Position numbers and translations under genes: made by a program
In this document: piece by piece, positions 13,345 through 35,030 of the stretch
Numbering within the stretch: position 1 is the first letter of the stretch
Layout of the letters: each line of letters begins with the position of its first letter
The notes under the pieces: generated by a model
What the model saw: the letters and a program-made list of their open reading frames with translations, nothing else
Database searches by the model: none
What the model was told of the DNA's origin: nothing
NCBI GenBank assembly: GCA_947570175.1
Contig: CANOTJ010000002.1
Location: 33,346-97,345, forward strand
Origin: an uncultured Mycoplasmatota bacterium
GTDB taxonomy: Bacteria; Bacillota_I; Bacilli_A; RF39; UBA660
Direction: 5' to 3'
Length of the DNA stretch: 64,000 bases

Positions 13345-13345
13345 T

Positions 13346-14092
13346 TTATTTACTAATCAACTTTTCAAAAGAATTAGCATTCAATATAGTATTTGATATA
13401 AACTCGCCTTTATAGAAGTTAGCCCAGTTATTAAATATACAAGGTGCATTTTTGGCTTTTTCCAAAGAATCAATTTTGATGAAGTTAATCTTAACATTAT
13501 TCTCTTTGGCATATTCAGTTAATTCTTTTACTTCATATTCTACATAAGGACACTCATTACTATAATAAATCGTAAAATCTTGATTATCTATTTTCATTGT
13601 TCTTGCATTATCATTAAATTTAGGTGTTTCGCAATCATCAAATTGAAGTGCTAATAATTCATAATCACCTATTTCATCTACAACTTTAAAGCCATAATGA
13701 AGATAAAACTCCTTTTCTCCAATAAAAGGCTTTTTCTTTTTTGAAGTTAAAGTACATATCCCACTCATACCTTTTTCTTTCGAATCATTTATTGCATATT
13801 CAAGTAGTTCTTTCGCGATACCATTTCCTTTAAAACTTCCTGCTACCCATAAACAATAAATATATTCATAATTCTTACCACTTATTGGCACCCAAGCAGT
13901 TTCTATTGGTTCATATTCAATAAATACCTTTCCTCTAGCATTTAGTTTTCTAAAAATGTGTCCATCTTCTAATTTACTTTTAATCCATTGTTTTTTGCTA
14001 TTAACACCTATTTGATGTTTTTTATCTCCAATCGCACAACAGATATGCTCATCATCAATATTTTCTAATGTTAAATTTACATATTCATTCAT
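13346..14092 (-). CDS. GNAT N-acetyltransferase fused to a YoaP-like C-terminal domain
   Basis: 248 aa; acetyl-CoA motif region 'FKGNGIAKELLEYAI'; C-terminal half resembles YoaP-like domain. Confidence 0.6.
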   Translation of the reverse strand: MNEYVNLTLENIDDEHICCAIGDKKHQIGVNSKKQWIKSKLEDGHIFRKLNARGKVFIEYEPIETAWVPISGKNYEYIYCLWVAGSFKGNGIAKELLEYAINDSKEKGMSGICTLTSKKKKPFIGEKEFYLHYGFKVVDEIGDYELLALQFDDCETPKFNDNARTMKIDNQDFTIYYSNECPYVEYEVKELTEYAKENNVKINFIKIDSLEKAKNAPCIFNNWANFYKGEFISNTILNANSFEKLISK

Positions 14093-14093
14093 T

Positions 14094-14666
14094 TTATTCT
14101 ACTCCTTCTAATGATTTTATACCATTCATAATTATTTCTAGTGATAAGTCAAAACTTTCTTTAATTGATATTGGATTCCCAAAAGCATTATTATTTACGA
14201 GCAAAGAAAACCCCTCTAAAAAACCTCTTAATGTTCTTATAATGTGATTTATATTATCTTCACTAATATCTAAAGACTTCATTACTTTAAATAACATATT
14301 AAATAGTCTTGTAGTAGCATTTTCTTTTTGGGCATTTTCATATTTGTTATACCAAAGCATAGCAGTAAAAACGCCTTTATTATTAGTAGCATAATCATAA
14401 AAAGCATAACACATATTCTTTAAAGCCTCATATCCTGATACTCCAACAGCAGAATCAATCATACTCTCTTCCATTTGCTTCCAACCATACACCATAAGTC
14501 TAGATTTTATTTCATCAAGACTTCTTATATGATTATACAAAGATGGCGATTTAATATTTAATTCTTCAGCAATTAGTTTGAGTGATAAATTATCTAACCC
14601 AACTCTATTTGCAATACAAGCAGAAGTCTCAATAATAAGTTCATCGCTAATGTTATTTTTTGACAT
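14094..14666 (-). CDS. TetR/AcrR-family transcriptional regulator
   Basis: 190 aa; N-terminal HTH 'LSLKLIAEELNIKSPSLYNHIRS'; first gene of the 14666->11627 operon. Confidence 0.75.
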   Translation of the reverse strand: MSKNNISDELIIETSACIANRVGLDNLSLKLIAEELNIKSPSLYNHIRSLDEIKSRLMVYGWKQMEESMIDSAVGVSGYEALKNMCYAFYDYATNNKGVFTAMLWYNKYENAQKENATTRLFNMLFKVMKSLDISEDNINHIIRTLRGFLEGFSLLVNNNAFGNPISIKESFDLSLEIIMNGIKSLEGVE

Positions 14667-14810
14667 ATTGCCCTCCGTAACTAATTGTAATATGATTTTA
14701 ACTAATTAAATTAGTTTTGTCAATAGTAAAAAGAGAAATTATAAAAATAATCTCCCCTATAAATTACTATTTATCTGTGAGATAATTATATCATTTTACA
14801 ATTAAATAAT

Positions 14811-15089
14811 CTATCTCTCATAGAAAACTTTTTTATTATTTTTTTCAGTTAGTTTTAATATCATTTTATTTTCATATTCATTTATCTGCTCCATAGTTAG
14901 CCACTCCGGTTTTTCATCTAATTTATTATAGATTTCTTTCATAGCAGATATTTGTTCTGTTATAGATAAAGCCCACAAATGTTTTTCGTAGCCATTGCCT
15001 AAAAAATATTTACAGTCCGATTCAAGCCTACTTAACATTTGATATAAAAACTCTGGATCATTGTTATCTTCAAAATATTTTTTACTCAT
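14811..15089 (-). CDS. Small hypothetical protein (92 aa), possibly an LPD-type accessory domain protein
   Basis: ORF track; sits upstream of the JAB-domain gene. Confidence 0.4.
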   Translation of the reverse strand: MSKKYFEDNNDPEFLYQMLSRLESDCKYFLGNGYEKHLWALSITEQISAMKEIYNKLDEKPEWLTMEQINEYENKMILKLTEKNNKKVFYER

Positions 15090-15113
15090 TTTTTACTCCT
15101 TTCAATATTTTAA

Positions 15114-16058
15114 TTATCTTACTTCTTTACTCTGTCGCAGTTTTTGAGATTTTTCTTTATCAAATAAATCACAAGTACACATTATTTCATCATCTACGAT
15201 TAAATCGCCTTTATTATCAACGCAAACCATATCTTTAATAGTTCCATACTCGATATGTTTTAAAACTTTGTTATAGGTATCTTTGTCTTTCGTTCCTATA
15301 AAAACTCTAGTAGAGCCACTATTTCTTGCAATATTTTTAAAAAAGCCATTTAAGTTCTCTAACTCTTGATTAAACATTTTATTTGGAATATCTAGTACCA
15401 TTCGTATATTACATTTACAATCAGTTAATATTGCCGTTGAATATTCCTTTTCATTCTGTATTTGTTTTAATATGGCTACTAATTCATCTCGATTTAAAAT
15501 TCTAACATCATATAAACTATTCTCTTTTACTTCATTTATTATAGAACTTTCTAATGTTTTTTCTTTAGGCATTAAAATTCTACCTTTTGAATCTTCTTCT
15601 ATAATCGAGTATCTATTAGAATTACCTAAAACAATATGTCCTAAAAAGCCATCAACATTAGCAGCAAATTCACGAGTAATATCTAAATCTTGCATTGATG
15701 GAATAGCCGATTCAGAAATATGATTATGTGCTAAATAATAACCGTCTGCACCAAGTCTTTTAATTCTATTATTCATTCTTTCAAAACTCCTAACAGGATT
15801 ATTGATAGTATCTTTCCCACGAGAGAAAACTACTACTGCATTTGGAATTTTACTTGTAATTGCTTCTTGCCCTATGATTTTGTCCTTCTTCATATAAAAA
15901 ATTCTAAATGTTTCATATCGTGGATCTCTGAAGATATTACATACATTAACTAAATCATTTTTCTTTTTAATTTTTGATTCACTTAAATCAATATATCCTT
16001 TATCATTAAATGATAAGTTTTCTAATTTGTTATAGACAACTTTTACTTTCTTATCCAT
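15114..16058 (-). CDS. JAB/MPN (RadC-like) domain protein
   Basis: JAMM-like motif 'YLAHNHISESAIPSMQDLDITR' (HxHx7SxxD); the start is moved to Met22 (ATG 16058) to avoid a 60-nt overlap with mobC. Confidence 0.55.
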   Translation of the reverse strand: MDKKVKVVYNKLENLSFNDKGYIDLSESKIKKKNDLVNVCNIFRDPRYETFRIFYMKKDKIIGQEAITSKIPNAVVVFSRGKDTINNPVRSFERMNNRIKRLGADGYYLAHNHISESAIPSMQDLDITREFAANVDGFLGHIVLGNSNRYSIIEEDSKGRILMPKEKTLESSIINEVKENSLYDVRILNRDELVAILKQIQNEKEYSTAILTDCKCNIRMVLDIPNKMFNQELENLNGFFKNIARNSGSTRVFIGTKDKDTYNKVLKHIEYGTIKDMVCVDNKGDLIVDDEIMCTCDLFDKEKSQKLRQSKEVR

Positions 16059-16060
16059 CT

Positions 16061-16390
16061 TTACTCTTTTTCCTTTGGAAGTAAAAATTCTTTTTTTATC
16101 TTCAACATAAATTGATTCCACTTATCTGATTCTTTTTGATATAAAGGATAATCAATTAAATTAAGTGAGTTTGCTTTTCTTGCAATTTGATTAAGATTAT
16201 TACCTATGGCTCTCATTTGATTTAATGCTTCGTAAAATCTTTCATCCGGTTTTTCTCTAGGCTCAAATCCTACAATTAAATTTCGTAGTAATTCCGATTC
16301 ATTAAGTCCAACTTTCTTGGCTTTCTTTTTTAAAAGAGTTGCTTCTTCTCTATTAAGCCAAACTTGTTTTTTTATACTTCTAGTTCTCAT
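16061..16390 (-). CDS. mobC: MobC-like relaxosome accessory protein (ribbon-helix-helix)
   Basis: Motif 'RAIGNNLNQIARKANS' characteristic of MobC family; the start is chosen at ATG 16390 with GGAGGTG RBS. Confidence 0.65.
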   Translation of the reverse strand: MRTRSIKKQVWLNREEATLLKKKAKKVGLNESELLRNLIVGFEPREKPDERFYEALNQMRAIGNNLNQIARKANSLNLIDYPLYQKESDKWNQFMLKIKKEFLLPKEKE

Positions 16391-16535
16391 CTTGCACCTC
16401 CGACTTTTCATTCTCTAATTTCAAACATCTTGCTTCCATTTCATTTATTCTATTGATTTGTAAGCAACACATTAAAGTAGTCATTGCAAGACCACCAACT
16501 ATCATACCTAATATAAAAAATAATAATTCTTTCAT
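16380..16535 (-). CDS. Possible 51-aa membrane protein (MKELLFFILGMIVGGLAMTTLMCCLQ...)
   Basis: ATG at 16535; one TM helix; overlaps the mobC start; below the ORF-track cutoff. Confidence 0.3.
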   Translation of the reverse strand: MKELLFFILGMIVGGLAMTTLMCCLQINRINEMEARCLKLENEKSEVQDEN

Positions 16536-16595
16536 CTTTAATCTTTCCTTTCTAAAGTCATAAAAGATTAGTACAATATTGCACTAATCTTTTAA

Positions 16596-16705
16596 TCATT
16601 TTATTTTCTTTATTCTTCATAAGGGGTTTGGGGATTTCCCCACAAGCGAAAACTTACGGGAGTAGGTTTTCAGTGCTGGCTAGGACATAGTGTCCTAGTA
16701 TAATG
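16596..16705. promoter_or_regulatory. Palindrome-rich intergenic region; candidate oriT or regulatory site next to mobC
   Basis: GGGGA-TT-TCCCC hairpin (16630-16641), 'CTTACGGGAG' (16654-16663), perfect 8-bp inverted repeat CTAGGACA-TAG-TGTCCTAG (16680-16698) followed directly by TATAAT (16699-16704); no U-tract, so not a simple terminator. Confidence 0.35.
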
Positions 16706-17242
16706 CTAGTGTTCTAAAGTACATCTACAACATTTTGAACAGAAATATTCGCAAGTTTCACATATACTTTTATCACTTTTTTCTTCAATTTCTTCTTCAT
16801 CTTCTTCGATTTCTACTGCTTCTATTTCTATAAATTCATCTATACTTGGGTTAATTTTTTTATCAAATAAATCAACTTCATCAAATATATCTTGCACAAT
16901 TTCCATTGCATTTTCTTCACTATCTGCATAAACAATAAACTCTAATTCTTTATCTTTTTTTGCATTAACTTTATATTTTTTCATATCAAAATTTCCTTTC
17001 ATAATTGAATTTTTTCCATCTACAAAACCAGTAACTTTTAATAATTCTATAAAGTCTAAATCTAAAACTTCACATAAATATATAAGCGTTACTATGTTTG
17101 GAATAGTCCTTATTCCATTCTCAATTCTTGTTACTTCTGGCTGACTTATACCAACATATTGAGCTAATTTATTTTTAGAAAGTCCTTTCTCTATTCTTCT
17201 TTCTTTCAAAATTTCCCCCAACAAATAATAATTAAATCTCAT
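16706..17242 (-). CDS. XRE-family HTH regulator with acidic linker and a C-terminal cysteine-rich tail
   Basis: HTH 'LSKNKLAQYVGISQPEVTRIENG'; tail 'CETCEYFCSKCCRCTLEH' (7 Cys in the last 18 residues). Confidence 0.65.
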   Translation of the reverse strand: MRFNYYLLGEILKERRIEKGLSKNKLAQYVGISQPEVTRIENGIRTIPNIVTLIYLCEVLDLDFIELLKVTGFVDGKNSIMKGNFDMKKYKVNAKKDKELEFIVYADSEENAMEIVQDIFDEVDLFDKKINPSIDEFIEIEAVEIEEDEEEIEEKSDKSICETCEYFCSKCCRCTLEH

Positions 17243-17245
17243 AAT

Positions 17246-18205
17246 TTATCTCTCTCTTTCTTTCGTATTTTTATTTTTAATTCCTAATTTAGTACATAAA
17301 AAATCATTGACATCCTTACCTATTGGAACTGGATTATCAATGACTTCGTATCTATCTTTTAATAAATATTTTATTGCTTCAGTTGATTCTCTACCTGCCT
17401 TATCGTTATCTAAATGCAAGTAGATTTTTTTAATATTTGGGTGTTGATTCAAATAATAATTTAATGCAAGTGGCACTTTGCTATCTTCTATATTCTCTGC
17501 CGGTTTATAAACTCCTGCAAGTGAAAGTAGCGATTCATTGTACCACTCTTTATCATTTAATTTCATTAAAGTTGCATAAGAAAGTAAGTCTATTGCACTC
17601 TCAAATAAGTGTACTCTATCATTTTTTTCTAGTGCTTCTAACTGAAAAGAAAATGCCTTATGACTTCCATTTGCTTCACCTTTGAAATTACTTTCATTTG
17701 TTCCCCTATACATTGCATATCTGGCTATTTTATTCTGATCGTAACCTATAAATACTGCATTGTTATTAGGAAATTGTTGATAAATTAAGTCATTATCTAT
17801 ACATTCTTGTATAATATCTTCATCAATTCCCCTACCCATAAGATAAGATTTTACCCTATCATTATTAGGTGCTTTCTTTGGCAACATTAGTCTATCTGGT
17901 ATCGTCTTTTTGACTGTTTTATATATTTTAGGTGGTGCTGCAACAACACTTCCTACAATAGTTTCTACGGCTTGTAAAAAGGTATAATCTCTTACTTTCA
18001 TTAAATAATCTATTGCACTTTTACCACCTATACTTTGTGAAAACCAGTACCACATACCATTTGATATTTTCAAACTATCGTGCGTTCTAGTCATATAAGT
18101 ATCTCTGCTAAAATGAACTAACTCATCTGGCTCATAGTTTTTTAGATAAGTTAATAAGTCCATTTGCTTTGCTCTTTTTATCACTTCTGGAGGATAATAT
18201 GCCAT
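17246..18205 (-). CDS. DUF3991/Toprim-domain protein (primase-like ICE protein)
   Basis: 319 aa; C-terminal Toprim acidic motif 'LHLDNDKAGRES' and 'DVNDFL'. Confidence 0.55.
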   Translation of the reverse strand: MAYYPPEVIKRAKQMDLLTYLKNYEPDELVHFSRDTYMTRTHDSLKISNGMWYWFSQSIGGKSAIDYLMKVRDYTFLQAVETIVGSVVAAPPKIYKTVKKTIPDRLMLPKKAPNNDRVKSYLMGRGIDEDIIQECIDNDLIYQQFPNNNAVFIGYDQNKIARYAMYRGTNESNFKGEANGSHKAFSFQLEALEKNDRVHLFESAIDLLSYATLMKLNDKEWYNESLLSLAGVYKPAENIEDSKVPLALNYYLNQHPNIKKIYLHLDNDKAGRESTEAIKYLLKDRYEVIDNPVPIGKDVNDFLCTKLGIKNKNTKERER

Positions 18206-18213
18206 AATATTAC

Positions 18214-18600
18214 CTACCTTTCTCGTGATTTTTTCTTTTCTTTTTGTTCTTCTACCAAATTATCTAGGGTATCATAAGTGCTATCTTCTAGTGCTTGATG
18301 AATACCTGCGTCACAGTTCATCCACCCTTGATATAATTCTTCAAGTGGATCTTTACATTTATTTAATGCTCTTATTTTTTCCATATCATAATGCTCATAC
18401 TCTGGGTAAAAATCTCCAAGTATTTCTTCTTTCATTACTTTTTCATAAGAACTTTGTATTATTTCATCTGGAGTTTTAGACTTTAAATTTTCAATAAAAT
18501 TATTATATTCTTGCTCCATTTTATTATAAACTTCTTGTCTAATTTTCATTTCATTATTCATAATCTTACCTACCTTTCTTTTAAAATGAAAAAAGAGCAA
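18214..18600 (-). CDS. Hypothetical protein (likely 115 aa starting at ATG 18561)
   Basis: ORF track; internal Met14 fits better than the listed start. Confidence 0.4.
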   Translation of the reverse strand: MLFFHFKRKVGKIMNNEMKIRQEVYNKMEQEYNNFIENLKSKTPDEIIQSSYEKVMKEEILGDFYPEYEHYDMEKIRALNKCKDPLEELYQGWMNCDAGIHQALEDSTYDTLDNLVEEQKEKKKSRER

Positions 18601-19239: not shown

Positions 19240-19614
19240 TTAATCGCCATCATTTTGTTCTTTTAAAAGTCCCATTTTCTTTAAAAGAAAGTATGCACTT
19301 CTACAACCTGCACAAACAAGTTGTTTCTTCTCTAATGTGTTTCTATCAGAAGAAATTATTATATATTCTATCAAGCCAGACACTTCTTTTTTAGTCAATG
19401 CTACTGGAATATCATCTTCTAATACTTTCTTTAAATTAGGATATTTGTCTATAATATCAGAACACTTATAAGCAGAATCTTTATATTCTTTATTCGTTCC
19501 CATAAGATAAGATGATACAAAATTTACAATATCCCAATAATTTTCTTCACACTCTTGGTCAAACATTTTATTGAAATCCACTTCTTGCCCTCCTAACGAC
19601 TTGTAATTTTTCAA
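19240..19614 (-). CDS. Hypothetical protein, paralog A (124 aa) with a conserved C-terminal motif
   Basis: C-terminus 'CAGCRSAYFLLKKMGLLKE' matches 'QGMRECYFLLRKLDLLK' of the upstream gene. Confidence 0.5.
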   Translation of the reverse strand: MKNYKSLGGQEVDFNKMFDQECEENYWDIVNFVSSYLMGTNKEYKDSAYKCSDIIDKYPNLKKVLEDDIPVALTKKEVSGLIEYIIISSDRNTLEKKQLVCAGCRSAYFLLKKMGLLKEQNDGD

Positions 19615-19617
19615 TAA

Positions 19618-19947
19618 TTACTTTAGTAAATCTAACTTTCTTAATAAGAAATAACATTCTCTCATACCTTGTATGAATATTTCTTTTTCTTCAATTTCTC
19701 TGCTATCTTCTTTTAATGATAAATAATTTTTAAGTACCTTTACTTCATACTTTGATAAAGAAAACAAGCAATGATTTTCAAGTACATCTGCTAATCTATC
19801 ATTTTTATTCATTAGATTACTTTGCTTTTTTAAGAGTGAATCATATTCAGGGTTACTCTTTTTCAAGCGAACTAGCATATCAGAAAGATATTCTGCAAAA
19901 TTATCATCACAATAGTCTTTGATAAATGTTTCATCAAAATTATCCAC
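19618..19947 (-). CDS. Hypothetical protein, paralog B (109 aa)
   Basis: Shares the C-terminal motif with 19240..19614; tandem arrangement. Confidence 0.5.
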   Translation of the reverse strand: MDNFDETFIKDYCDDNFAEYLSDMLVRLKKSNPEYDSLLKKQSNLMNKNDRLADVLENHCLFSLSKYEVKVLKNYLSLKEDSREIEEKEIFIQGMRECYFLLRKLDLLK

Positions 19948-20006: not shown

Positions 20007-23000
20007 TTACCTTGCATATTCCTTATTACACCTTTGACTTTCTACTTCAACACTATCATCAAAATCTATAACTTCTTTGTCCTTTTCATTCATATTAAGT
20101 AAGACATTTACTTCATCTAATCGTTTAGATTTTTCTTTTAATTCTTGTTCTTGTTTAAATGGTCTTTTACATTCTTCTTTGGCATTTTCAAATTGAATTT
20201 TGGTATTTTCTAACTCTGTTTGTTCTTGCTTTAAATCAAAAGAGAAACCATCTATTTCATTATTGATACGAGTAATATTACCTAAATTATCATTACCAAG
20301 CATTACTGAATGTGATAACTCATTTTTCAAATATATATGAAAACTACCATACTCATAATCAAGTTCCATCTTAAAACCTCTATAACTTCCTATCTCTTGT
20401 TTTTCAGTTTTTTCAATGTTCTTACATAACTCAAGTATCTTATCTCCTGCTTGTTTTTTATCGGTATAAGTAACACCTTTTATAGTCATACTTTGAAATT
20501 TATCATCACTATTTGGAGTATTTTTTTCGACTAATTCTATATCTTTTTTAAAGCCTTCTATTCGTGATTCTAGCCTTTTTATTTCACTAGGATAATACTT
20601 TGCCACTTTATCTTCCATAGCATATATTTGGCTTAAATGATTTTGTTTTAAGAGTTTTAATTTAGCAACCTGTGTGTCTAAATCAGTCTTTTCCATTATC
20701 AAAGGATTACCGGCAGCAAGTGCTTTAATCTGTGCATAATTAAGTGCTGCTTCATCTATATCTTCAGCAAATCTCACAGGAGTTTTAGAAGTCATTATCT
20801 GTGAAATGAATCGTTGTTTATTCTCTACTAATTGATAAAGATATGCGTCAAAAGTTCCCTCTGTAACATAGTTATAGATATAAACTTCTTTATTTTTGTT
20901 ACCCTGTCTTAATATTCTTCCTATTCTTTGGGTAAGGTCAGCAGGTCGCCACGGACAGTCTAGGTTATGAATTGCAATTAGTTTATCTTGGCAGTTTGTT
21001 CCTGCACCCATTTTGGAAGTGCTACCAAACAATATTCTTTTTATACCACTTCTTACTTGTGAAAACAAAGTTTTCTTTTGTATATCTGTATTTGCATTAT
21101 GAATAAACTCGACTTCATCTTCGGGAACACCTAATTCTTGCAACTTTCTTTTTAATTCATCATAGACATTAAATTTATCTTCACTTGGTGTAGATAAATC
21201 ACAGAATACTAATTGTGTTAAGTGTTCTTCTTTATGCTCTTGCCATATTCTATAAATATTATTCGCACATAAAGACACTTTACTATTCGGATCATCTGGC
21301 AACATATCATTCATAAGTCTTTGGTCAAGTGCAAGTTTTCTACCATCATTTGTTATTTTTAACATATTATCAGTTGATGGGTCAACCTTTTTATTTCTAA
21401 CCATATCTGCCCTATTAGAAAGTTCTTTTACCATTTCTTTTTGTATTTCAGTAGGCTTTGCTACTATCGTTTCGTAGTGGGCTTCTGGGACTGGAAGTTT
21501 TAGCATATCTGCTGTTTGAATATCAGCTACTTCTTTAAACATTGCCATCAATTCTGGTAAGTTATAAAACTTTGCAAATCTAGTCTTTGCTCTGTAACCT
21601 GTTCCCTCTGGAGCAAGTTCAATAGCCGTTACTGTTTCACCGAATGTTGAAGCCCAAGCGTCAAAGTGTTGTAGATTTCTTTTTTCTAACTCTGCATATT
21701 GCAAATATCTTTGCATTGTATAAAGTTCTACCATACTGTTTGATACTGGAGTACCAGTTGCAAAAACAACTCCTCGACCACCAGTTAATTCATCTAAATA
21801 CCTACATTTCATAAATAAGTCACTCGACTTTTGTGCTTCTGTTTGTGCTATACCACCAACATTTCGCATTTTGGTATAAAGGAATAAATTTTTAAAGTAA
21901 TGGGCTTCATCTACGAATATTCTATCAATACCTAATTCTTCAAAAGTAACAACATCATCTTTTCGGCTCGTATCATTTAACTTTGCTAATTTTGCTTCAA
22001 GACTTTTTTGTAGTCTTACTAATTGTTTTATAGTAAAGTTTTCTCCATTATGGTCTTTTAAATCTTGTACTCCGATACTTATATCATCAATTTGATTTTG
22101 TAAGATAATTCTTTGTCTTTCAGCAGACATTGGTATCTTCTCAAACTGGCTATGAGAAATGATAACTGCATCATAATCTCCTGTTGCTATACGAGAACAG
22201 AACTTTTTACGATTAGCAGTTTCAAAGTCTTTCTTCGTAGTAACGAGAATATTAGCACTTGGGTAAAGTTGCAGAAATTCTGAACTAAATTGTTCTACGA
22301 TATGATTAGGTACTACGAACATACTCTTATTACATAGTCCTAGTCTCTTAGATTCCATAGCAGCAGCGACCATTTCAAAAGTCTTTCCTGCTCCTACTTC
22401 GTGGGCTAGTAGTGTGTTTGTATTTCCATATAAAACTCTGGCTATGGCATTAACTTGGTGTGGTCGCAAAGTTATCTCTGGATTCATACCGTGAAAATTG
22501 ATATGAGAGCCATCATACTCACGAGGACGATTAGAATTAAACTTCTCGTTATAGATTTTACTTAATCTTTCTCTACGGTCTATATCGCTCCATATCCACT
22601 CATCAAAAGCAGTTTTAATTTGCTCTTGTTTTGCCTGTGCGATAGCAGTTTCTTTTTTATTTAACTCTGGTACTTTTTTACCATCTTTCTCAATATAGTC
22701 ATATATTCTAACATCTTTTAAATTAAGTGTTTCTTCTATAATTTTGTAAGCATTTATTCTTCCTGTTCCATAAGTAGAATATGCTTTTACATTTCCCCTA
22801 TCATAGTTTTTACCCTCAACATTCCATTGGGCTGTACTCTCCATAAAATGCACTTGTATTCTATCTCTAATATTATAAGATGGCAATAATAGATAATCTA
22901 TAAAATCATCTATAACATCTGTTGGAAGCCAAGTAGCACCAAGTCTAACACTTATCTCTTGTGGCTCTAAATCTTTCGGCATTACTTCTTCAAGACATTT

Positions 23001-26000
23001 TACATTTATATTGAATCTAGGGTCATCTTCGGCAAACTCTTTGGCTATCTTTAATTTCTCACGAATATTACCAGATAGGTACTCATCAGCAGTTACCCAT
23101 ATATTAGGATCCCCATATTCTGGTACATTAAATATGACACCCTCTAGGTCAGTTATCATTTTGTCCATATCAAGTCCACATAGTTTTTGCATAAACTCTA
23201 AATCAACTCTAGCCTTTTCAGATATTGAAACAATTAAGGCTTCATTTGCAGTATCTACACCTGTTACTTCCTTATGTGGAAGTATTGTTCTTTTAGTAAA
23301 CATATCTGCTTTTTTAAGAAGTTCTTTGTTCTCATCAAGTATCTCTAAAGAACATAGTAAATAAAAACTATTGTCATTAGAAAAAGCAGAGGTATTTGCT
23401 CTGCTATTGATAAGTCCATATTTTTTAGTAAAACTGTCATATAGTTTATTAAGTTTTACTTGTTCTTGTTTTATATCTTCATCTGGAAAGTCCTCTGTTT
23501 GTAATTCTAATAGATTTCTTACACACTCTCTTATTTCAATTAAGCCTCTAATACGATTTTCAGTAGTAAGTGGCAATTCTTGTGGGTACATTCTACTATT
23601 CTCACGATAATAGACTTTATTATCTACTATGGTATATGAGAAGTTTTTAACATTATAGTCAGCAGGAATAGATAAATCTTCTTCATCTTCCCCTATATCA
23701 TCTATCTCATATTCTTTTATTTCGGCGTGTATATTAGAAATAGCATTGTTAAGTTGTTCTTCTAGTGATATATCTTCTCTTGCTTCACAAGTAGAGTCCA
23801 TACCATATCTAGTAGATTCCATTTTCATATTACCACATATCATATCTGGGTTATCTACAAAGTATTTATTCATTTTAATACCATTTTCATCAGTATCTAA
23901 ATATACCCAGTCTGGCTCTATATCAGTTATTGAATCTCGCTTTTGTAAGAAGATAATATCAGAAGTAACTTTCGTACCTGCATTATCTTTAAAGGTATTG
24001 TTTGGAAGTCTTATTGCTCCTAACAAGTCGGCTCGTTGTGCTATATACTTTCTAACACTAGGATTTTCCTTATCTAAAGTACCTTTACTTGTTATGAAAG
24101 CAACAATTCCACCTGGTCTTACTTTGTCGAGAGTTTTTGCGAAAAAGTAGTCGTGAATAAGAAAATTATGCTTATCATATCTCTTATCCAATAATTTAAG
24201 ACTATCAAATGGAACATTACCTATTGCTCCATCAAAGAAAGAATCTGGAAGTTCTGTATTTTCATAGCCTTGTACTGCAATAGAACTCTTTTGATATAGT
24301 TGTCTAGCAATTCTACCACTTATCGAATCAACTTCTATACCATATAACTTACAGTCTTTTAAGGTATCTGGTATCATACCTAGAAAATTACCAACTCCAC
24401 AACTAGGCTCTAGTATGTTTCCATCTTTCATACCCATACTTTCTAATGCTTTATACATCGTACGAATGACTACTGGTGGTGTATAGAAAGAAGTTCTTGT
24501 AGAACTCATTGCTGACCTATATTCTTCTTCATCTAATATATTTTTAAGTTTTAAATGCTCATCTGCCCAAGAAGAATTATTTTCTTCAAAGGCTTGTGAT
24601 AAGCTACCCCATCCAACATATTGAGATAAAACTTTTTGTTCTTCTGGAGTTGCAAAGCGATTTTCTTCTTCACATTGTTTCAACACTTTAATTGCTGCTA
24701 GATTACGATTGAACTTTTCTCTATCACTTCCAACACCTAATAAGTCATCAGTAATATGAAAGTTATTTCTATCTTCGTTTTTGATTTCTGGGTGTATATC
24801 AAAAGTGGTAACTCGTTTTCTTCGCTTTTTAGCAATATTAGGTATAATTGTTTCTTTTTTCTGTTCTGCTTCTTTTTCAGCAAGTAAAGATAATACTTTG
24901 CTTAATTCTTCATTACGAAAAATAGGAAAACCTACACCATTTTGGAAAGTAATATCTTGTAATGAAACGACATCATTATCAATACTATCAATGGTATATT
25001 CTCTATCGCCAATAGTTATATTTTTACCGATTAAATCTTCTTCTAATTTTTCACGATCAGCGACCTTTGTTTCATACTTTTTACGATATTTTTTTAGTCT
25101 TTCTAAATCGTGATTATTAACTTTATCTACTGTGCCATCTTCGTTATAATCAAATAGTTCATTTAATAAAAAATCATAAACTTCTAGTCCCTCTAAATCA
25201 ATGTCATCAGAGTAAATAACGATATTCTCGTTAGAATCGAAGTTTACCTTAATATCGCTCATATCATAAAGTGATAGGATATGCTCTACTAAATCTACTT
25301 CATCATCATATTCTCCATACTCATTATGCTTTTCTAATTCTCCATTTTCAGTAACTTTGATTTTCAAATGGTCGTTACACGGATTTTCTTTTACTTTCTT
25401 ATCAAACTCATCAAAGGAAAATTCTTGATTAAATAATGGGTATTGATAGTCGTATAATCTAACAATGTCATTATCTAATGAAAGTATTTCAAATTTATCT
25501 GCACCTATATAGACTTTGTCGCCTACTTGATAATCGTAGTCTGGGAAAGTTTCATTTAATTCTTTGATAAAGTTTTCTATTATCTTTTTATCTTCATCAT
25601 CACTTTCTAAATCATTCCCTAGATTTTGAATATACTCTATAAAGCCTCTTAATTCACTTGGATTATGAATTTGATTATCTATATCTCTAATAACATCTTC
25701 TTCTGTTTCGCCATTTTCAAGATTTGCTTCATACCCCTGTAAATCATATTCTTTGATAAAATCATTTAATCGTTTTGCTAGGCTATCTTCTTGTTCTTCA
25801 GTAAAAGTATCTTCTTGATTCAATTCATCTATGCGTTGTTGATCTTTTTCTAACCAAGCAGGATACTCTCTTAATTCTTTTGGATTAAGGTATCTATCAA
25901 GGCTAATTAGTTCTTTTATTCTCTTTTCAACATAATTCCATTTAAGTAATGTCTTTATTTCATTATCAAAATATCCACGATATAAAGTAAGTCCTTTACT

Positions 26001-27803
26001 ATCAGCATTATATCCTACGCCAGATCCACGAATAGTATATGAACTACCACTTAAACCATACATATTTTTTATATAGTTAATATTTTCAATAGCAGATAAA
26101 CTACTTTGAAGTTGTCTATATATTGCATACTTTGTTTCAGTATGTCGTGTTTGAAAATACTTATCTATAAACTCTTGCGAAAACTCTAACTCTGGTATTT
26201 CTTTGCTATTTTCTTCATCTAATAAAGTCATCTGCTCTTTTTCAGATGGCAAATATTTTTCTCTATCATTTAATTGATGAAGTAAAATCATTGAATCATA
26301 ATGATATGTTAAATCTTCCCAAGATACAAAACTTTCTGTATCTCGTGATAAAAAATTACCTTTCCATAGTAATAAACCATTTTCAAAGGCTTTGTAACCA
26401 TACATTTGCGTTCCAACAAAAATACCCACATATACATTTTCAAAAGAATTTTTAATGAACTCGGCTCTTTTTAAAGGCTCTTTTTCTAGTTCAAAATATC
26501 TTTTTACTTCTACTTTGGGTATTTTTAAATGTGCATAAGCAAGTATTTGATTTATTTTATCATCTGTAACAACATACGGACAATGTGTTCCACTATCCTC
26601 GTTCCAAAAATCTAATTGTAGATTAGTTCTCTCGTTACTATTTCCTCTGCTCTCGCTTTCAAGTTGTTCATTAAGCCTATCCACTTCATCTGGTCTTTGG
26701 CTTTCAATTCTTCTGTTATATTCTCTTTCTTCGCCATTTCCTCTATCATTTGTTCCACTCTCGTTTCGGCTGTCGTTTGAACTTCCATCAAGTGTTCTGG
26801 TAATTTGCCCTGCATTAGAAGTGTCGTGTATAGAGGCTTGTCGTTCTTCTTCAAGTGGCTTAATCTCATCAATGCGTATTTCCCATTTACTTGTTCTTCT
26901 TGTGGTGGTACTAGGTCTGGTATTTGATAATCGCCCACCATTTTGTAACTTATTTCTTTCATCTAAATCACTCCTCTCGGCATTATTCTTGCCATCATCT
27001 AAATCATACTCGTTTTGCTTATTATTATCAAATGTGTGAATCTTATCAATTTCACTTATTCGCACATTTTTTATTGTGCTATATATTTCACGAAGTCCAG
27101 ACTCGGCAATATCACTTGTTGCCATACCTAGTCTTGTTATCGTATCATAAGTATTGAAATTTAATAACTCTCTAAAATCTTCCTTATCAAAGTAATCATT
27201 AGGATTTATTCCACAACGCTTTAACATAACATAAGCAACACTATTCTCTAATACTTTCTTATAAATAGTTTTTATATACAACTCATCAAGTTCTTCTAAA
27301 AAACTATTATCTTTAAAATACATTAGATTTGATAAATAGTCTGGCAAGTTATCTTCTACCATATTTTTAGCACTAGAAATAATAGCACTTGCTATGGTAG
27401 AGTTATCTTCTAATTCTCCATATCTATTTTCTAGGGCTTCGATAACATATTCTTCATAAGGTTTCGTAACAGACCATAGTATAACATTTTTACCGTGCTT
27501 ACTATTCGTATCACTTACATCAAATACATATCTTAAATAAGTATTTCCATTATTTTCTGCAAGAAGTGCTATTCCAGTTGCTCCTTTATTAACCCATCTT
27601 TTTAAAGATTTATTCCAAGTTTCTATTTCAGCACAAGCACTTGCATAAGGCTTTTGTGCATAAATTAAAACTTGATCGGAAAATGGATACTTATAATTCA
27701 TTGCAGCACACTCTAAAAATGATAGCCATTCACTTTGATTTGTACTTAAATCTTTTAATGTTTCCGAATATAATTCTATTATATTTCTTAATTTATTAGC
27801 CAC
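20007..27803 (-). CDS. Giant 'polyvalent' ICE protein (2598 aa): N-terminal conserved region, low-complexity linker, N6-adenine DNA methyltransferase domain, SNF2/DEAD-like helicase domain and conserved C-terminal domain; presumed anti-restriction / DNA-modification function
   Basis: MTase motif I 'ILEPSCGVGNFLG' and motif IV 'GNVPFD' (aa about 1130-1200); helicase Walker A 'AHEVGAGKTFEM', motif II 'FVDEAHYFKN', motif VI 'LTQRIGRILRQGN'. Confidence 0.85.
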   Translation of the reverse strand: MANKLRNIIELYSETLKDLSTNQSEWLSFLECAAMNYKYPFSDQVLIYAQKPYASACAEIETWNKSLKRWVNKGATGIALLAENNGNTYLRYVFDVSDTNSKHGKNVILWSVTKPYEEYVIEALENRYGELEDNSTIASAIISSAKNMVEDNLPDYLSNLMYFKDNSFLEELDELYIKTIYKKVLENSVAYVMLKRCGINPNDYFDKEDFRELLNFNTYDTITRLGMATSDIAESGLREIYSTIKNVRISEIDKIHTFDNNKQNEYDLDDGKNNAERSDLDERNKLQNGGRLSNTRPSTTTRRTSKWEIRIDEIKPLEEERQASIHDTSNAGQITRTLDGSSNDSRNESGTNDRGNGEEREYNRRIESQRPDEVDRLNEQLESESRGNSNERTNLQLDFWNEDSGTHCPYVVTDDKINQILAYAHLKIPKVEVKRYFELEKEPLKRAEFIKNSFENVYVGIFVGTQMYGYKAFENGLLLWKGNFLSRDTESFVSWEDLTYHYDSMILLHQLNDREKYLPSEKEQMTLLDEENSKEIPELEFSQEFIDKYFQTRHTETKYAIYRQLQSSLSAIENINYIKNMYGLSGSSYTIRGSGVGYNADSKGLTLYRGYFDNEIKTLLKWNYVEKRIKELISLDRYLNPKELREYPAWLEKDQQRIDELNQEDTFTEEQEDSLAKRLNDFIKEYDLQGYEANLENGETEEDVIRDIDNQIHNPSELRGFIEYIQNLGNDLESDDEDKKIIENFIKELNETFPDYDYQVGDKVYIGADKFEILSLDNDIVRLYDYQYPLFNQEFSFDEFDKKVKENPCNDHLKIKVTENGELEKHNEYGEYDDEVDLVEHILSLYDMSDIKVNFDSNENIVIYSDDIDLEGLEVYDFLLNELFDYNEDGTVDKVNNHDLERLKKYRKKYETKVADREKLEEDLIGKNITIGDREYTIDSIDNDVVSLQDITFQNGVGFPIFRNEELSKVLSLLAEKEAEQKKETIIPNIAKKRRKRVTTFDIHPEIKNEDRNNFHITDDLLGVGSDREKFNRNLAAIKVLKQCEEENRFATPEEQKVLSQYVGWGSLSQAFEENNSSWADEHLKLKNILDEEEYRSAMSSTRTSFYTPPVVIRTMYKALESMGMKDGNILEPSCGVGNFLGMIPDTLKDCKLYGIEVDSISGRIARQLYQKSSIAVQGYENTELPDSFFDGAIGNVPFDSLKLLDKRYDKHNFLIHDYFFAKTLDKVRPGGIVAFITSKGTLDKENPSVRKYIAQRADLLGAIRLPNNTFKDNAGTKVTSDIIFLQKRDSITDIEPDWVYLDTDENGIKMNKYFVDNPDMICGNMKMESTRYGMDSTCEAREDISLEEQLNNAISNIHAEIKEYEIDDIGEDEEDLSIPADYNVKNFSYTIVDNKVYYRENSRMYPQELPLTTENRIRGLIEIRECVRNLLELQTEDFPDEDIKQEQVKLNKLYDSFTKKYGLINSRANTSAFSNDNSFYLLCSLEILDENKELLKKADMFTKRTILPHKEVTGVDTANEALIVSISEKARVDLEFMQKLCGLDMDKMITDLEGVIFNVPEYGDPNIWVTADEYLSGNIREKLKIAKEFAEDDPRFNINVKCLEEVMPKDLEPQEISVRLGATWLPTDVIDDFIDYLLLPSYNIRDRIQVHFMESTAQWNVEGKNYDRGNVKAYSTYGTGRINAYKIIEETLNLKDVRIYDYIEKDGKKVPELNKKETAIAQAKQEQIKTAFDEWIWSDIDRRERLSKIYNEKFNSNRPREYDGSHINFHGMNPEITLRPHQVNAIARVLYGNTNTLLAHEVGAGKTFEMVAAAMESKRLGLCNKSMFVVPNHIVEQFSSEFLQLYPSANILVTTKKDFETANRKKFCSRIATGDYDAVIISHSQFEKIPMSAERQRIILQNQIDDISIGVQDLKDHNGENFTIKQLVRLQKSLEAKLAKLNDTSRKDDVVTFEELGIDRIFVDEAHYFKNLFLYTKMRNVGGIAQTEAQKSSDLFMKCRYLDELTGGRGVVFATGTPVSNSMVELYTMQRYLQYAELEKRNLQHFDAWASTFGETVTAIELAPEGTGYRAKTRFAKFYNLPELMAMFKEVADIQTADMLKLPVPEAHYETIVAKPTEIQKEMVKELSNRADMVRNKKVDPSTDNMLKITNDGRKLALDQRLMNDMLPDDPNSKVSLCANNIYRIWQEHKEEHLTQLVFCDLSTPSEDKFNVYDELKRKLQELGVPEDEVEFIHNANTDIQKKTLFSQVRSGIKRILFGSTSKMGAGTNCQDKLIAIHNLDCPWRPADLTQRIGRILRQGNKNKEVYIYNYVTEGTFDAYLYQLVENKQRFISQIMTSKTPVRFAEDIDEAALNYAQIKALAAGNPLIMEKTDLDTQVAKLKLLKQNHLSQIYAMEDKVAKYYPSEIKRLESRIEGFKKDIELVEKNTPNSDDKFQSMTIKGVTYTDKKQAGDKILELCKNIEKTEKQEIGSYRGFKMELDYEYGSFHIYLKNELSHSVMLGNDNLGNITRINNEIDGFSFDLKQEQTELENTKIQFENAKEECKRPFKQEQELKEKSKRLDEVNVLLNMNEKDKEVIDFDDSVEVESQRCNKEYAR
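20816..22466 (-). other. SNF2/DEAD-like helicase domain within the giant protein (aa about 1780-2330)
   Basis: Walker A, DEAH-like box and QRxGRxxR motif VI. Confidence 0.7.
23816..24806 (-). other. N6-adenine methyltransferase domain within the giant protein (aa about 1000-1330)
   Basis: SAM-binding GxGxF and NPPF-like 'NVPF' motifs. Confidence 0.7.
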
Positions 27804-28177: not shown

Positions 28178-28444
28178 TTAACCATCCTTTCTATTTTCTT
28201 TATAGCCACTTAAAAAAGCAATGATTTGCTTATTCTTAACGGCATTTTTAAATTCAATGATAATCATAGTTTCATTATTTTGTAGATTTGGTATTTTCGT
28301 TAAATCTTCCAATTTTAAAGCAAGTATTTTTTTATCAGTATTGAATCCTGCTTCAAATAGTTTTTCTAAAGTCTTTGTAATTTGACCTATATTATATTTA
28401 GTTTCCAAATAAATCCCTCCTAGACTTTCTCTACTAATTCGCAT
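28178..28444 (-). CDS. Hypothetical protein (88 aa)
   Basis: ORF track. Confidence 0.4.
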   Translation of the reverse strand: MRISRESLGGIYLETKYNIGQITKTLEKLFEAGFNTDKKILALKLEDLTKIPNLQNNETMIIIEFKNAVKNKQIIAFLSGYKENRKDG

Positions 28445-29076
28445 ATATAGATAATTTGCTTATTCGTATTGTGTCTGCAAGTGATTAAAGTTAGTGTGCT
28501 TTTTTCGGCATTTCTAACAATATTAGCAGTTCCTGTTTTCTCAATGTCGTATTGATTAACGACTTTGTACTTGTACTCGCTACCATTATAGAAAATACTT
28601 ACTTCATCATCTCTTTCGAGTTTATGAAGATTTTTGAAATAAGCAGTTCTTCCATTTCCAGAATGTCCTGCTAAAATCACATTACCTTTGTCTTTATCTG
28701 GCATATCAGATTCTTTGACAACAAGTATATTTCTATTAACATTGTTATAATAACTACCTTTATTTGCTAGACCTTTTTCTAACCCAATTTTAGGTATCTT
28801 AATTACTGCAAAATAATCTATTTTTGTTTTAGTAGGTTGTGGCTTTTCAGTTTCTACTTTTTCTTCTGGTACTTCTGGAGTAGTATCTTCTGTAATTTCT
28901 TTTTGTTCTTCAAAGAAAGTATCAATTAACTGTTCTTCGTTTTTTGTTTCGAGATAATTATATAAATACTTACCACCGATAATTAAAGTACCTAAAATAA
29001 TAAGTAAAGAGCCAACTACGATTAGTTGACCCTTACTATTTTTATTATTCTTGATTTTGTTTTTTCTTTTTAACAT
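28420..29076 (-). CDS. Sortase (transpeptidase), class B-like
   Basis: 218 aa; N-terminal TM anchor; catalytic 'LAGHSG' His region and 'TLITCRH' active-site Cys motif. Confidence 0.75.
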   Translation of the reverse strand: MLKRKNKIKNNKNSKGQLIVVGSLLIILGTLIIGGKYLYNYLETKNEEQLIDTFFEEQKEITEDTTPEVPEEKVETEKPQPTKTKIDYFAVIKIPKIGLEKGLANKGSYYNNVNRNILVVKESDMPDKDKGNVILAGHSGNGRTAYFKNLHKLERDDEVSIFYNGSEYKYKVVNQYDIEKTGTANIVRNAEKSTLTLITCRHNTNKQIIYICELVEKV

Positions 29077-32701: not shown

Positions 32702-33643
32702 CTATCTAGCACCCTGTTGTTTCTGTCTTTCCATAGCCCTATTGTAATAGTCTAATGCTTTGTAAATATGCTTTACCCATTCAGTTGTTGGCATACCTCT
32801 AGGCATTTTAGGTTGTAAGTCTTTAAAATCTAATTTTAGTTTTTCTACTTGATTAGGTTTTTCACGGCTCATTATTTCTTCAATCTTATCTTCATCTAAC
32901 TTCCCACTCTTACTCAATTCTTTCATTTCTTGGGCTTGAGATACTGTTGGTGAAGCAACATTACATTCCATACTATTTAAAAGCCATTCTTGTTCTTGTT
33001 TAGTAAGGAATGATATTTCATACGCTGGGCTTAATGCTATACTTGGTGAAATATTAAGCGAATCATTATCTACCATATCAAGTAATGGTTTTATCAGTTC
33101 AGTAAGTCTTATAAATCTATGAACATTAGATTTACTTTCGCCCACTTCTTCTGCTAATATCTCAAGAGATTTTTTCCCAGACAACTTGTTACCGACTTGG
33201 GAACAAGTTAAATCATTTCTTTGTCCTTGATGTGTCATTGCTTCCAACTTCATTTTATAAGCATAGGCTCGTTCACTAGGTAAGATATGTTCTCTTTGTA
33301 AGTTACTATCTACCATTATTATAGTGGCTTCATCATCTGTAAGGTTTCTAACTATACACGGCATAGTTCCTTTATTAGCAATTTCACTTGCTTTTTTTCT
33401 TCTATGTCCAGAAATAATTTGATATTTACCATTTGGAAGTGGTCTAACAAGTACAGGTAACAATACACCATACTCACTTATGCTTTGTGCCATTTCTTGC
33501 ATTTCTTCATTCACAATTACCTTAAATGGGTGATTTGGGAAGTCTTGAATATCTGTTAGTGCTATATCAACAACTTTTTCTGAATTTCTATCTTGTCGTT
33601 CTTGTTCTGTTGTAAATAAATCATCTAACTTTGGCAACGGCAT
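32702..33643 (-). CDS. parB: ParB/Spo0J-family partition protein
   Basis: ParB box 'QIISGHRRKKASEIA'; start proposed at Met30 (ATG 33643); the listed longer ORF would overlap parA by 110 nt. Confidence 0.75.
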   Translation of the reverse strand: MPLPKLDDLFTTEQERQDRNSEKVVDIALTDIQDFPNHPFKVIVNEEMQEMAQSISEYGVLLPVLVRPLPNGKYQIISGHRRKKASEIANKGTMPCIVRNLTDDEATIIMVDSNLQREHILPSERAYAYKMKLEAMTHQGQRNDLTCSQVGNKLSGKKSLEILAEEVGESKSNVHRFIRLTELIKPLLDMVDNDSLNISPSIALSPAYEISFLTKQEQEWLLNSMECNVASPTVSQAQEMKELSKSGKLDEDKIEEIMSREKPNQVEKLKLDFKDLQPKMPRGMPTTEWVKHIYKALDYYNRAMERQKQQGAR

Positions 33644-34445
33644 TTTTATATCGGTCTTTGCCACTTTCAAGCACCTCCTTTGCAAATGAAGAATATGCGT
33701 CTGCCACTTTGCTATTTTTGTCATACTCAAAAATACTATTTCCAGTAGAAGTTGCTTCTGCTGTCTTTATTGCAAAAGGTATTTGCGTATCATAAAACTT
33801 AACTGCACTTCCATAATTTTCTTGTAGTTGTGTTCTCATTTCTTTTGATAAGTTAGTTCTCTTATCTACTAGAGTAATTAAAACGCCATCTACTTTTAAT
33901 TTAGGATTGATTTGATTTCTTACTTTACTAACAGTCTTTAATAGTTCGGTCATTCCCATAGCAGAAAGATATTGACTTTGCATTGGGATTATAACACTAT
34001 CGGCACTTGCTAACGCATTAACTGTTAGTATTCCTAAAGATGGCTGACAGTCTATAAGAATATAATCATAATTTTCTTTTACTTTAGATAAACAGTTTCT
34101 CATAGTGTACTCCCTACTCATAGCACTAAACAATGACATTTCTAATACTGATAATCTTAAATTAGATGGAATTAAATCTATATTTTCTTGATGGTGTAAT
34201 ATAGATTCACTTGTCTGGATATTTTCATCATTCATTGACTGTTCCATTAAATTAGCAATAGTTATCGGTATTTTATCAAGTTCTCGCCAACCCATAGAAA
34301 TCGTAAGACTTCCCTGTGGATCTGTATCAACTACTAATACTTTTTTGCCTTCCTTTGCTAAAGCAACACCTAGACTAAAAGTTGTGGTGGTCTTGCCCAC
34401 TCCACCTTTCTGATTAGCCACTGCAATAACTTTGCATTGCGACAT
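33621..34445 (-). CDS. parA: ParA/Soj-family partition ATPase
   Basis: Deviant Walker A 'NQKGGVGKTTTT'; start chosen at ATG 34445 (MSQCKV...) with AGGAGG 9 nt upstream. Confidence 0.8.
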   Translation of the reverse strand: MSQCKVIAVANQKGGVGKTTTTFSLGVALAKEGKKVLVVDTDPQGSLTISMGWRELDKIPITIANLMEQSMNDENIQTSESILHHQENIDLIPSNLRLSVLEMSLFSAMSREYTMRNCLSKVKENYDYILIDCQPSLGILTVNALASADSVIIPMQSQYLSAMGMTELLKTVSKVRNQINPKLKVDGVLITLVDKRTNLSKEMRTQLQENYGSAVKFYDTQIPFAIKTAEATSTGNSIFEYDKNSKVADAYSSFAKEVLESGKDRYKNAVAKVR

Positions 34446-34807
34446 ATACATTTTCCTCCTTTCTTTAAACTCTAGCCACTCTATAAAAATAAAATGGCTA
34501 TGTATGGGCATAAAAAAAGAACTGACTATTTCTAACCAGTTCAAAGTATGTTTATAAAATTATCTTTTATTTGCCAACTTTAATAGCAATTTATCAATAT
34601 AATAAGTATCTTCATTATCTTTAATCAGTTTGTTTCTAAACTCTACTAATTCATCTATAATTATTCTATATTCATTATAATTTACTTTAAGTTTTATTTT
34701 TTTCATAAAAATTACACTTCCATTCATAAATATAGTATAATATGAATTGGTATTAAAATAAAAATGTGTGTTCTACTTTTTAAATGAATTTATCGACAAT
34801 TTATAGG

Positions 34808-35030
34808 GGGTTGCAATGTCGTAATCACCTTTCTAATTCTCATCATAAATATCATTAAAATCACTATGTTTTTATCAATTTTTAGTAATTTTACCACTTT
34901 TTACATTAAAATGTGCAAGATCTAAAATCAAAGAAAGCCTTTATTTATAAGGGTTTGCTAGGGGGTTGCAATAAATCGTAATCAACCAGTTGATAGTCGT
35001 ATTTTGTCGATTATTTTCCATTTATTTCAC
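34808..35030. repeat. Copy A of an about 220-bp direct repeat (about 80% identical to 36722..36940), bounded by 'GTCGTAATCACC' / 'ATCGTAATCAACC' boxes
   Basis: Manual alignment of the two regions; shared blocks 'CACTATGTTTTTA', 'TTTATTTATAAG(G/A)GTTTG', 'AAATCGTAAT(C/T)AACCAGTT', 'TTGTCGATT'. Confidence 0.7.

Follow-up and report, generated by a model that had tools for sequence, protein, structure and literature searches.

An uninterrupted gene for a protein of 2598 residues

The gene described here lies in a window of 64,000 nucleotides (nt), which is the whole stretch of DNA that was analysed (contig CANOTJ010000002.1 of an uncultured Mycoplasmatota bacterium). All coordinates are positions in this window, and residue numbers are those of the protein encoded by the giant gene. 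At 20007-27803 on the reverse strand, ORF (open reading frame) calling gave one uninterrupted ORF of 2598 amino acids (aa), the single 7.8-kb ORF that a first-pass annotation made from the sequence alone had reported. Its start codon is GTG and AAGGAGGTGA, a strong ribosome-binding site, is found 5 bases upstream. The ORF is separated by 33 nt from the preceding and by 59 nt from the next one in a long string of co-directional genes. The check whether several genes had been joined by sequencing errors, which the first-pass annotation had proposed, came out against joining. A genome scan revealed ten related loci in independent gut metagenome-assembled genomes (MAGs), which carry the label uncultured Tenericutes, Bacilli or Oscillospiraceae. 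At these loci the ORF is intact (2373-2648 aa) and has a conserved start, and the best-segment identity is 62-97%. This implies that the giant ORF is neither an assembly artefact nor a sequencing chimera.

A catalytic core of the DarB kind

From residue ~1010 to its C-terminus the protein is occupied by a catalytic core (Table 1), of which residues 1012-2578 matched PHROG 10089 'DarB-like antirestriction' with 1596 bits (E 0). The motifs from which an N6-adenine methyltransferase and a helicase had been proposed in the first-pass annotation were all recovered: EPSCGVGNF at 1132-1140 and NVPF at 1196-1199 in the former, and GAGKT at 1804-1808, DEAH at 1965-1968 and QRIGRILRQGN at 2292-2302 in the latter. 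The catalytic motifs of both enzymes are intact. When the methyltransferase segment was scanned alone, Pfam N6_Mtase scored 41 bits (cut-off 20.4), and the helicase matches SNF2-rel_dom (40.2 bits), ResIII (36.5) and Helicase_C (26.7) each exceeded their cut-offs.

BLASTP aligned the core with DarB of phage P1 in three blocks of collinear order. The first block is the methyltransferase (31% identity, E 6e-25), in which YTP, EPSxGxGxF and GNVPF are present in both proteins; the second covers the N lobe of the ATPase, at 24% identity and E 8e-22, and the third, at 36% identity and E 4e-11, the region of motif VI. As P1 DarB also has GNVPF, the NVPF of the giant protein is the family's own form of NPPY/F and no defect. 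DarB-like proteins of other phages (Erwinia PEp14, Klebsiella SopranoGao, Burkholderia Bcep22 and others) were 31-38% identical over residues ~1010-2578, 60% of the query. The match to PHROG 10089 includes the C-terminal extension as far as residue 2578, and the phage homologues align to residue ~2565-2578. The two lobes of the SNF2 ATPase are separated by a helical insert of ~225 residues (1976-2200). Between methyltransferase and ATPase, residues 1341-1775 are 83-99% identical among orthologues and are probably the region called DUF8437 in newer Pfam, where PF28554 was annotated on the SNF2 fragment of one homologue.

The LPD36-like domain in front of the methyltransferase has no model score and is recognisable by position and motif only: GVGS at 1023 fits the GxG(G/A/S) of LPD36, which has been placed directly before the methyltransferase in the DarB-type module (PMC5512222). 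A Pfam scan of the whole protein and of six segments gave no family in residues 1-1000, 1400-1790 and 2330-2598. The domain-by-domain scan proposed in the first-pass annotation was thus borne out for N6_Mtase and SNF2-rel_dom; ArdC-N and all LPD families, like ArdA, YodL and MutS_I, were undetected by Pfam anywhere in the giant protein. Judged by its sequence, the stretch from 1010 to 2578 is a predicted module of the P1 DarB kind, composed of LPD36, a gamma-class N6-adenine methyltransferase and a SWI2/SNF2 ATPase.

An ArdC-like head without a metalloprotease site

The AlphaFold model of the head (residues 1-258; predicted local distance difference test, pLDDT, 93; predicted template modelling score, pTM, 0.89) showed helices followed by four strands in its N-terminal part. 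The squiggle-like VFDVSDT at residues 93-99 matches the position of the 'squiggle' VFNADQ of the plasmid antirestriction protein ArdC, and F94, D95, D98 and T99 are invariant across 28 head homologues. In these features the head resembles ArdC of the IncW plasmids R388/pSa (PDB 6SNA), from which it differs by an identity of 10%, by the absence of a Pfam match and by its position as a domain of a giant protein, ArdC being a stand-alone protein of 297 aa. Neither Pfam, nor a PDB sequence search with the whole protein, nor a PDB search with the head profile gave anything meaningful for this region.

ArdC binds its metal through H201, H205 and E229 (HExxH), ligands that have no counterpart in the head. 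A motif scan found no HExxH throughout the 2598 residues and Pfam found no peptidase family. Besides, within residues 113-258 no histidine occurs among the invariant or near-invariant columns of the homologue alignment. With neither HExxH nor a conserved histidine, the second, helical domain of the head, which stands in the position of the ArdC metalloprotease, appears degenerate and non-catalytic. On the basis of the model the head is thus predicted to carry the fold of ArdC without its metalloprotease site; it is ArdC-like and not ArdC proper, since that site is missing. ArdC counteracts HsdRMS, acts in the recipient and exerts its antirestriction independently of its protease (PMC7213743), with which a head without HExxH agrees.

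A protein homologue search with the head region gave 672 homologues. The homologue sets contain proteins of up to ~1.74 times the query length (at most 450 aa for the query of 258 aa and 1062 aa for that of 611 aa), and for this reason full-length giants are missing from them and fragments over-represented. Short 'stand-alone' head proteins (<=450 aa) were considered as a free-living form of the domain and rejected, as many are contig-end fragments or fusions to transposon genes.

Two pairs of duplicated domains in the middle region

Between head and core lies a low-complexity linker, as had been noted at first pass; it extends from residue 259 to 404 and is rich in N, E, R, D and S. It contains a short motif of the form [HQY]xxGRLxx(T/S)(R/E)P at residues 290-297 (26913-26936, reverse strand), which is followed by a WEIRIDE-like stretch at 307-313 (26865-26885, reverse strand). 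GRL was present in the equivalent linker window of 81/165 homologues versus 8/165 shuffles. From its sequence, the GRLxxTRP-type motif could be a processing, docking or translocation signal.

Beyond the linker, a coverage map of 104 homologues revealed conserved blocks at 405-660 and 756-820 and variable ones at 665-755 and 820-920. The AlphaFold model of residues 400-1010 (pLDDT 76.6) was of good confidence within domains and unreliable in its inter-domain geometry. In this model two consecutive domains, D2 (~414-507) and D3 (~543-634), have one topology in common (three helices, four strands, one helix). Alignment of their profiles with hhalign gave a probability of 91% (E 1e-6, 98 columns). 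D2/D3 is a second internal duplication, beyond the two repeats seen at first pass. In a set of 1.84 billion proteins, a profile of the pair matched 2341 representative clusters at E<=0.001. The matches are mostly at residue ~400-670 of proteins of up to 3287 aa, and some proteins have up to five matched stretches. No Pfam family covers D2/D3, and homologues with the pair likewise have none there in the newer precomputed annotation. With hhalign, D2/D3 showed no detectable relation to R1 or to the ArdC-N portion of the head (probability <1%).

The two GDxxYxIxSxDNDxVxLxD repeats described at first pass proved to be real. Their cores are found at 761-785 and 932-950, within full units R1 (~756-820) and R2 (~923-990). 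The Smith-Waterman score of R1 versus R2 was 63, with 27.7 +/- 5.0 for 500 shuffles (maximum 47), and hhalign gave a probability of 90.7% (E 1.2e-6). Each unit was modelled as four short strands and a helix. The best structural matches were all barrels of the SH3/Tudor type, none of them statistically secure for the 611-residue query: YfhH (1sf9), a PWWP domain bound to single-stranded DNA (ssDNA; 6kco, 1.9 A over 47 residues), the Tudor domains of SMN, SETDB1 and BAHCC1, CarD and TnsB. R1 and R2 are probable SH3-like barrels according to these models. R1 is flanked by acidic stretches, a helical one at ~661-755 (net charge -21) and one at 821-922 (net charge -19).

Module exchange and disruption among homologues

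Among the orthologues whose methyltransferase-SNF2 core is 88-99% identical to that of the window, the N-terminal part proved to be mosaic (comparison of loci L001-L010). L003, L006, L009 and L010 lack the acidic helical segment (78-79% gapped) despite a near-identical core, and L007 is devoid of D2 and D3 and has a head of only 40% identity. Outside this group, the more distant L008, with a core of 67-73% identity, does not have the 821-922 insert (75% gapped). In more distant relatives MutS_I, LPD25 or LPD11 is found at the equivalent region. Differences by whole modules on cores that are 88-99% identical imply recombinational module exchange, and the variation of the N-terminal part is cassette-like behaviour as described for polyvalent proteins.

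Relatives of the giant protein were found by tblastn in 2230 plasmid records, and also in many phages and integrative and conjugative elements (ICEs). On plasmids of Firmicutes (Clostridium perfringens, C. botulinum, Listeria, the Bacillus cereus group and Streptococcus) the matches span head and core, and full-length homologues are present on completely sequenced plasmids. Homologues are often cut just after the ArdC-like head (P0001, P0005, P0009, P0052 and P0089, and locus L012 at 10001-17905). In four of these (P0001, P0005, P0052 and P0089) the reading frame runs from the head into sequence of TnpV (PF14198) or of a large serine recombinase, and in L012 three ORFs lie between a head-TnpV fusion and a 999-aa SNF2 remnant. 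Such fusions can be understood from the known integration of integrative and mobilizable elements into this gene: the 'SNF2' gene of Tn5252-family ICEs is a preferred integration site of those with a serine recombinase (PMC7168690), as reported for S. suis.

Genetic context

The giant gene is situated in an operon-like string between adhesin-sortase and primase/relaxase genes (Table 1). That it is carried by an ICE, as claimed at first pass, was upheld in so far as the window contains genes for a relaxase, a type IV coupling protein (T4CP), a primase, ParAB and a large serine recombinase; the element is only partly covered, its left end lying outside the window. It is reasonable to regard it as an integrated conjugative element of the Firmicute type.

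The genes for LPD11, the RadC-like protein, DUF3848, the DUF6664 pair and the Toprim primase look like an establishment gene cluster. The trio of adhesin, sortase and giant gene recurs in loci L003, L010 and L012. This trio may be a parallel of cnaC-srtD-dam of C. perfringens plasmid pCW3. For pCW3, srtD is required for efficient transfer according to the work cited in PMC8225981.

Table 1. Modules of the giant protein and genes of its surroundings (positions in the window; strand; residues of the giant protein; motif or basis)
Feature	Positions	Strand	Residues	Motif or basis
Giant gene	20007-27803	-		
ArdC-like head: ArdC-N-type domain (predicted ssDNA-binding) and helical domain	27030-27803	-	1-258	
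N/E/R/D/S-rich linker, presumably disordered	26592-27029	-	259-404	GRLSNTRP 290-297, WEIRIDE 307-313
Domain D2 (three helices, four strands, one helix)	26244-26591	-	405-520	AlphaFold 2 pLDDT ~73-94
Domain D3, tandem duplicate of D2	25869-26186	-	540-645	Best-conserved part of N-terminal half
Helical segment, acidic at ~661-755	25539-25868	-	646-755	Composition; model
Repeat R1, small four-stranded barrel and helix (SH3/Tudor/YfhH-like)	25344-25538	-	756-820	
Acidic variable insert	25038-25343	-	821-922	Net charge -19; low-confidence model
Repeat R2, second SH3-like unit	24834-25037	-	923-990	Smith-Waterman, hhalign, model
LPD36-like helical domain preceding methyltransferase	24534-24776	-	1010-1090	GVGS at 1023; start of PHROG match
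Gamma-class N6-adenine DNA methyltransferase	23784-24521	-	1095-1340	FYTP 1106, EPSCGVGNF 1132, NVPF 1196
Conserved inter-domain region of DarB-like core	22479-23783	-	1341-1775	PHROG 10089 and 11801 matches
SWI2/SNF2-type superfamily 2 ATPase	20799-22478	-	1776-2335	GAGKT 1804, DEAH 1965, QRIGRILR 2292
C-terminal extension, common to phage DarB-like proteins	20010-20798	-	2336-2598	PHROG 10089
VirD4-type coupling protein (T4CP)	6340-8157	-		
MobA/VirD2 relaxase	9987-11357	-		
Cys-rich CPCC protein	11627-11878	-		
Probable cargo: PEBP-family protein, radical SAM enzyme, GNAT-YoaP protein, TetR regulator	11972-14666	-		
Helix-turn-helix protein, RadC-like JAB protein, solo LPD11 (92 aa); 3' of primase	LPD11 and RadC within 14811-16121	-		
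DUF3991-Toprim primase	17246-18205	-		
Two tandem DUF6664 paralogues, DUF3848; 3' of giant gene	within 18214-18600, 19240-19947	-		
Sortase, directly upstream of giant gene with adhesin	28420-29076	-		
Thioester/SpaA-repeat adhesin, 909 aa	29045-31774	-		
ParB	32702-33730	-		
ParA	33621-34544	-		
MafB19/APOBEC-like cytidine deaminase and adjoining Bro-N protein, 5' of ParA	35022-35489, 35836-36705	-		
Mob_Pre relaxase and 585-aa large serine recombinase block, guanine-cytosine (GC) skew reversed	40224-45707	+		

Comparison with known systems

Polyvalent proteins of phages and conjugative elements were defined by Iyer, Burroughs, Anand, de Souza and Aravind in 2017 (PMC5512222). Among their commonest units is the LPD36-adenine methyltransferase-SWI2/SNF2 module with DarB as archetype, and 93% of the conjugative ones carry an ArdC-N header (PMC5512222). 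In streptococcal ICEs the gene is named 'SNF2' in the Tn5252 family and 'COG4646' in the Tn1549 family (PMC7168690). The giant protein shares with the conjugative polyvalent proteins an ArdC-N-type header at the extreme N-terminus, a methyltransferase-SWI2/SNF2 module with a predicted LPD36 domain in front of it and the conjugative context; at least eight modules were mapped in it, and it is encoded among genes for ParAB, sortase, primase, relaxase and T4CP. It differs from them by the absence of a zincin metalloprotease and of a Pfam-recognised LPD domain, by D2/D3, SH3-like repeats and acidic helices that have no Pfam family, and by its hosts, which are gut MAGs labelled Tenericutes/Bacilli. 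The giant protein belongs to this known class, the architecture of which was already described by Iyer et al. (2017). The interpretation as a polyvalent methyltransferase-helicase given at first pass is supported with three refinements: no LPD family is matched by Pfam, a zincin protease is missing, and the protein contains the second internal duplication D2/D3 at residues 405-645.

With P1 DarB (defence against restriction; 2255 aa) it has in common the collinear series of a gamma-class methyltransferase, an SNF2-type ATPase with helical insert and a C-terminal extension, at 24-36% identity in the aligned blocks. However, the methyltransferase of DarB begins near residue 90, whereas the giant protein has ~1000 extra N-terminal residues before the module. 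Moreover, DarB is a protein of the virion head that is injected together with double-stranded DNA, whereas the giant protein belongs to a conjugative element, which transfers ssDNA.

Probable role of the giant protein

In our judgement the giant gene probably codes for a polyvalent protein that serves establishment and antirestriction of the integrated conjugative element. This assignment draws on the homology of the core to DarB, the intact motifs, the conjugation and establishment genes in the neighbourhood and the intact state of the gene in the ten MAG loci. It is also supported by the combination of the LPD36-methyltransferase-SNF2 module with an ArdC-N header, which is typical of conjugative polyvalent proteins (PMC5512222). 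A protective role against restriction is suggested by the examples of DarB and ArdC. The protein would either accompany the DNA on its passage through the type IV system or be synthesised early in the recipient. On entry into the new cell the ArdC-like head would bind the incoming single strand or junctions of single- and double-stranded DNA, and in this way tether the giant protein in cis to the DNA of the element. The SNF2 motor and the methyltransferase would then act processively in cis, the motor tracking along the newly synthesised duplex and the methyltransferase modifying its adenines; alternatively, the protein complex might occlude or displace type I enzymes. In either case the restriction systems of the recipient would fail to cut the element DNA. 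D2/D3, the SH3-like repeats, the acidic helical segments and the linker motif may be exchangeable adaptors for the binding of nucleic acids or proteins, and the same modules are possibly recognised by the transfer machinery.

Several points weigh against this assignment. Gamma-class methyltransferases act on duplex DNA, and for this reason protection of an incoming single strand by methylation is not straightforward. A zincin protease to release the modules was not found in the 2598 residues, unlike in ~70% of the polyvalent proteins that contain ArdC-N (PMC5512222). The frequent disruption of homologues by inserted elements shows that the gene is dispensable for survival of the element. When the DNA upstream of the relaxase was searched for inverted repeats resembling an oriT, weak AT-rich palindromes were all that appeared; no oriT was located, and a position of the gene in the leading region, with transcription directed towards oriT, is a tentative idea. 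[quoted passage not shown]

The alternative that keeps some credit, though it is clearly the less likely one, is an action in the donor or resident host. The protein would then be a solitary processive adenine methyltransferase-translocase that marks element or host DNA before transfer, or that has an epigenetic or regulatory function, with the head as a DNA-binding anchor. Such a function would suit a gene that is only 33 nt away from the upstream ORF and shares its direction, in one long string, with genes for partition, adhesin and sortase that look constitutive. It would also suit the normal need of methyltransferases for duplex DNA, and nothing points to a translocation signal. However, methylation in advance cannot match the specificities of the recipients unless the enzyme is very promiscuous, and the downstream genes for primase, RadC, LPD11 and DUF6664 have typical early or establishment functions. 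In addition, the action of P1 DarB is in cis and follows injection (PMC5512222), and ArdC is required on the recipient side (PMC7213743).

We consider it improbable that the protein is a defence or exclusion enzyme, similar to DISARM/BREX or to restriction-modification systems of type ISP/III, that protects host and element from phages or competitors. Coupling of a methyltransferase to a helicase is the logic of type I and III systems as well, and local matches were obtained with PADLOC and NCBIfam models (BrxHI/II, 67 bits; DrmD, 41 bits; DpdE; helicases with a phospholipase D, PLD, domain). These matches are, however, confined to the generic C-lobe of the helicase (residues ~2170-2430) and far below the cut-offs (41 versus 610 bits for DrmD), and none of the seven neighbouring ORFs scanned matched PADLOC; partner genes (DrmA/B/C or BrxA/B/C/X/L) are absent nearby. 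At the thresholds used, scans with Pfam, NCBIfam and PADLOC detected no nuclease family, such as the Mrr/PD-(D/E)xK or PLD domain expected of single-polypeptide restriction-modification enzymes (type ISP, IIL or III-like), although the unmodelled regions could hide a cryptic nuclease. The domain order and the ArdC-like head fit counter-defence proteins. The DISARM/BREX reading was rejected on match coverage and gene neighbourhood. Lastly, the unusual length of the ORF and the many database relatives that are truncated or fused to transposon genes might raise the suspicion of a pseudogene in decay, or of several genes that errors of assembly or sequencing have joined. This reading is effectively refuted by the ten intact MAG loci, the strong ribosome-binding site, the intact catalytic motifs and the full-length homologues on complete plasmids.

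Next to the favoured role in establishment and antirestriction, a more tentative proposal, which we regard as rather doubtful, concerns the N-terminal ~1000 residues. These may constitute a set of recombining cassettes, which would comprise two or more undescribed domain families and be swapped between near-identical cores to retarget the enzyme. D2/D3 and the SH3-like R1/R2 would then act alongside the ArdC-derived pseudo-protease head and the GRLxxTRP linear motif. If this holds, swaps could direct the enzyme, for example, to defence proteins of the recipient, or to the coupling protein of the type IV system so that it is transferred together with the DNA.

Giant methyltransferase-helicase proteins are common. 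They are encoded on elements by which resistance genes are disseminated among Firmicutes, and the mechanism is undefined for every member including P1 DarB. The locus offers a clean, intact example with a full domain map. Its novelty is modest and lies in the ArdC-like pseudo-protease head, the D2/D3 and SH3-like families (widespread and unannotated), the linker motif and the series of module swaps. The current picture of conjugative antirestriction is left unchanged by it. The natural module-swap variants on a near-identical catalytic core are ready controls for structure-function work.

Other genes of the window

The cytidine deaminase encoded inside the element, near ParA, matched dCMP_cyt_deam_1 (E 6e-23) and MafB19-deam (E 1.5e-18); it could be a housekeeping-type enzyme, or a toxin or anti-defence effector. 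The block at 40224-45707 can be read in two ways, as the module by which the ICE integrates or as a distinct mobilisable element that accreted at the end of the ICE. Beyond ~46 kb the genes are chromosomal-looking (amidase, HD, RNB).

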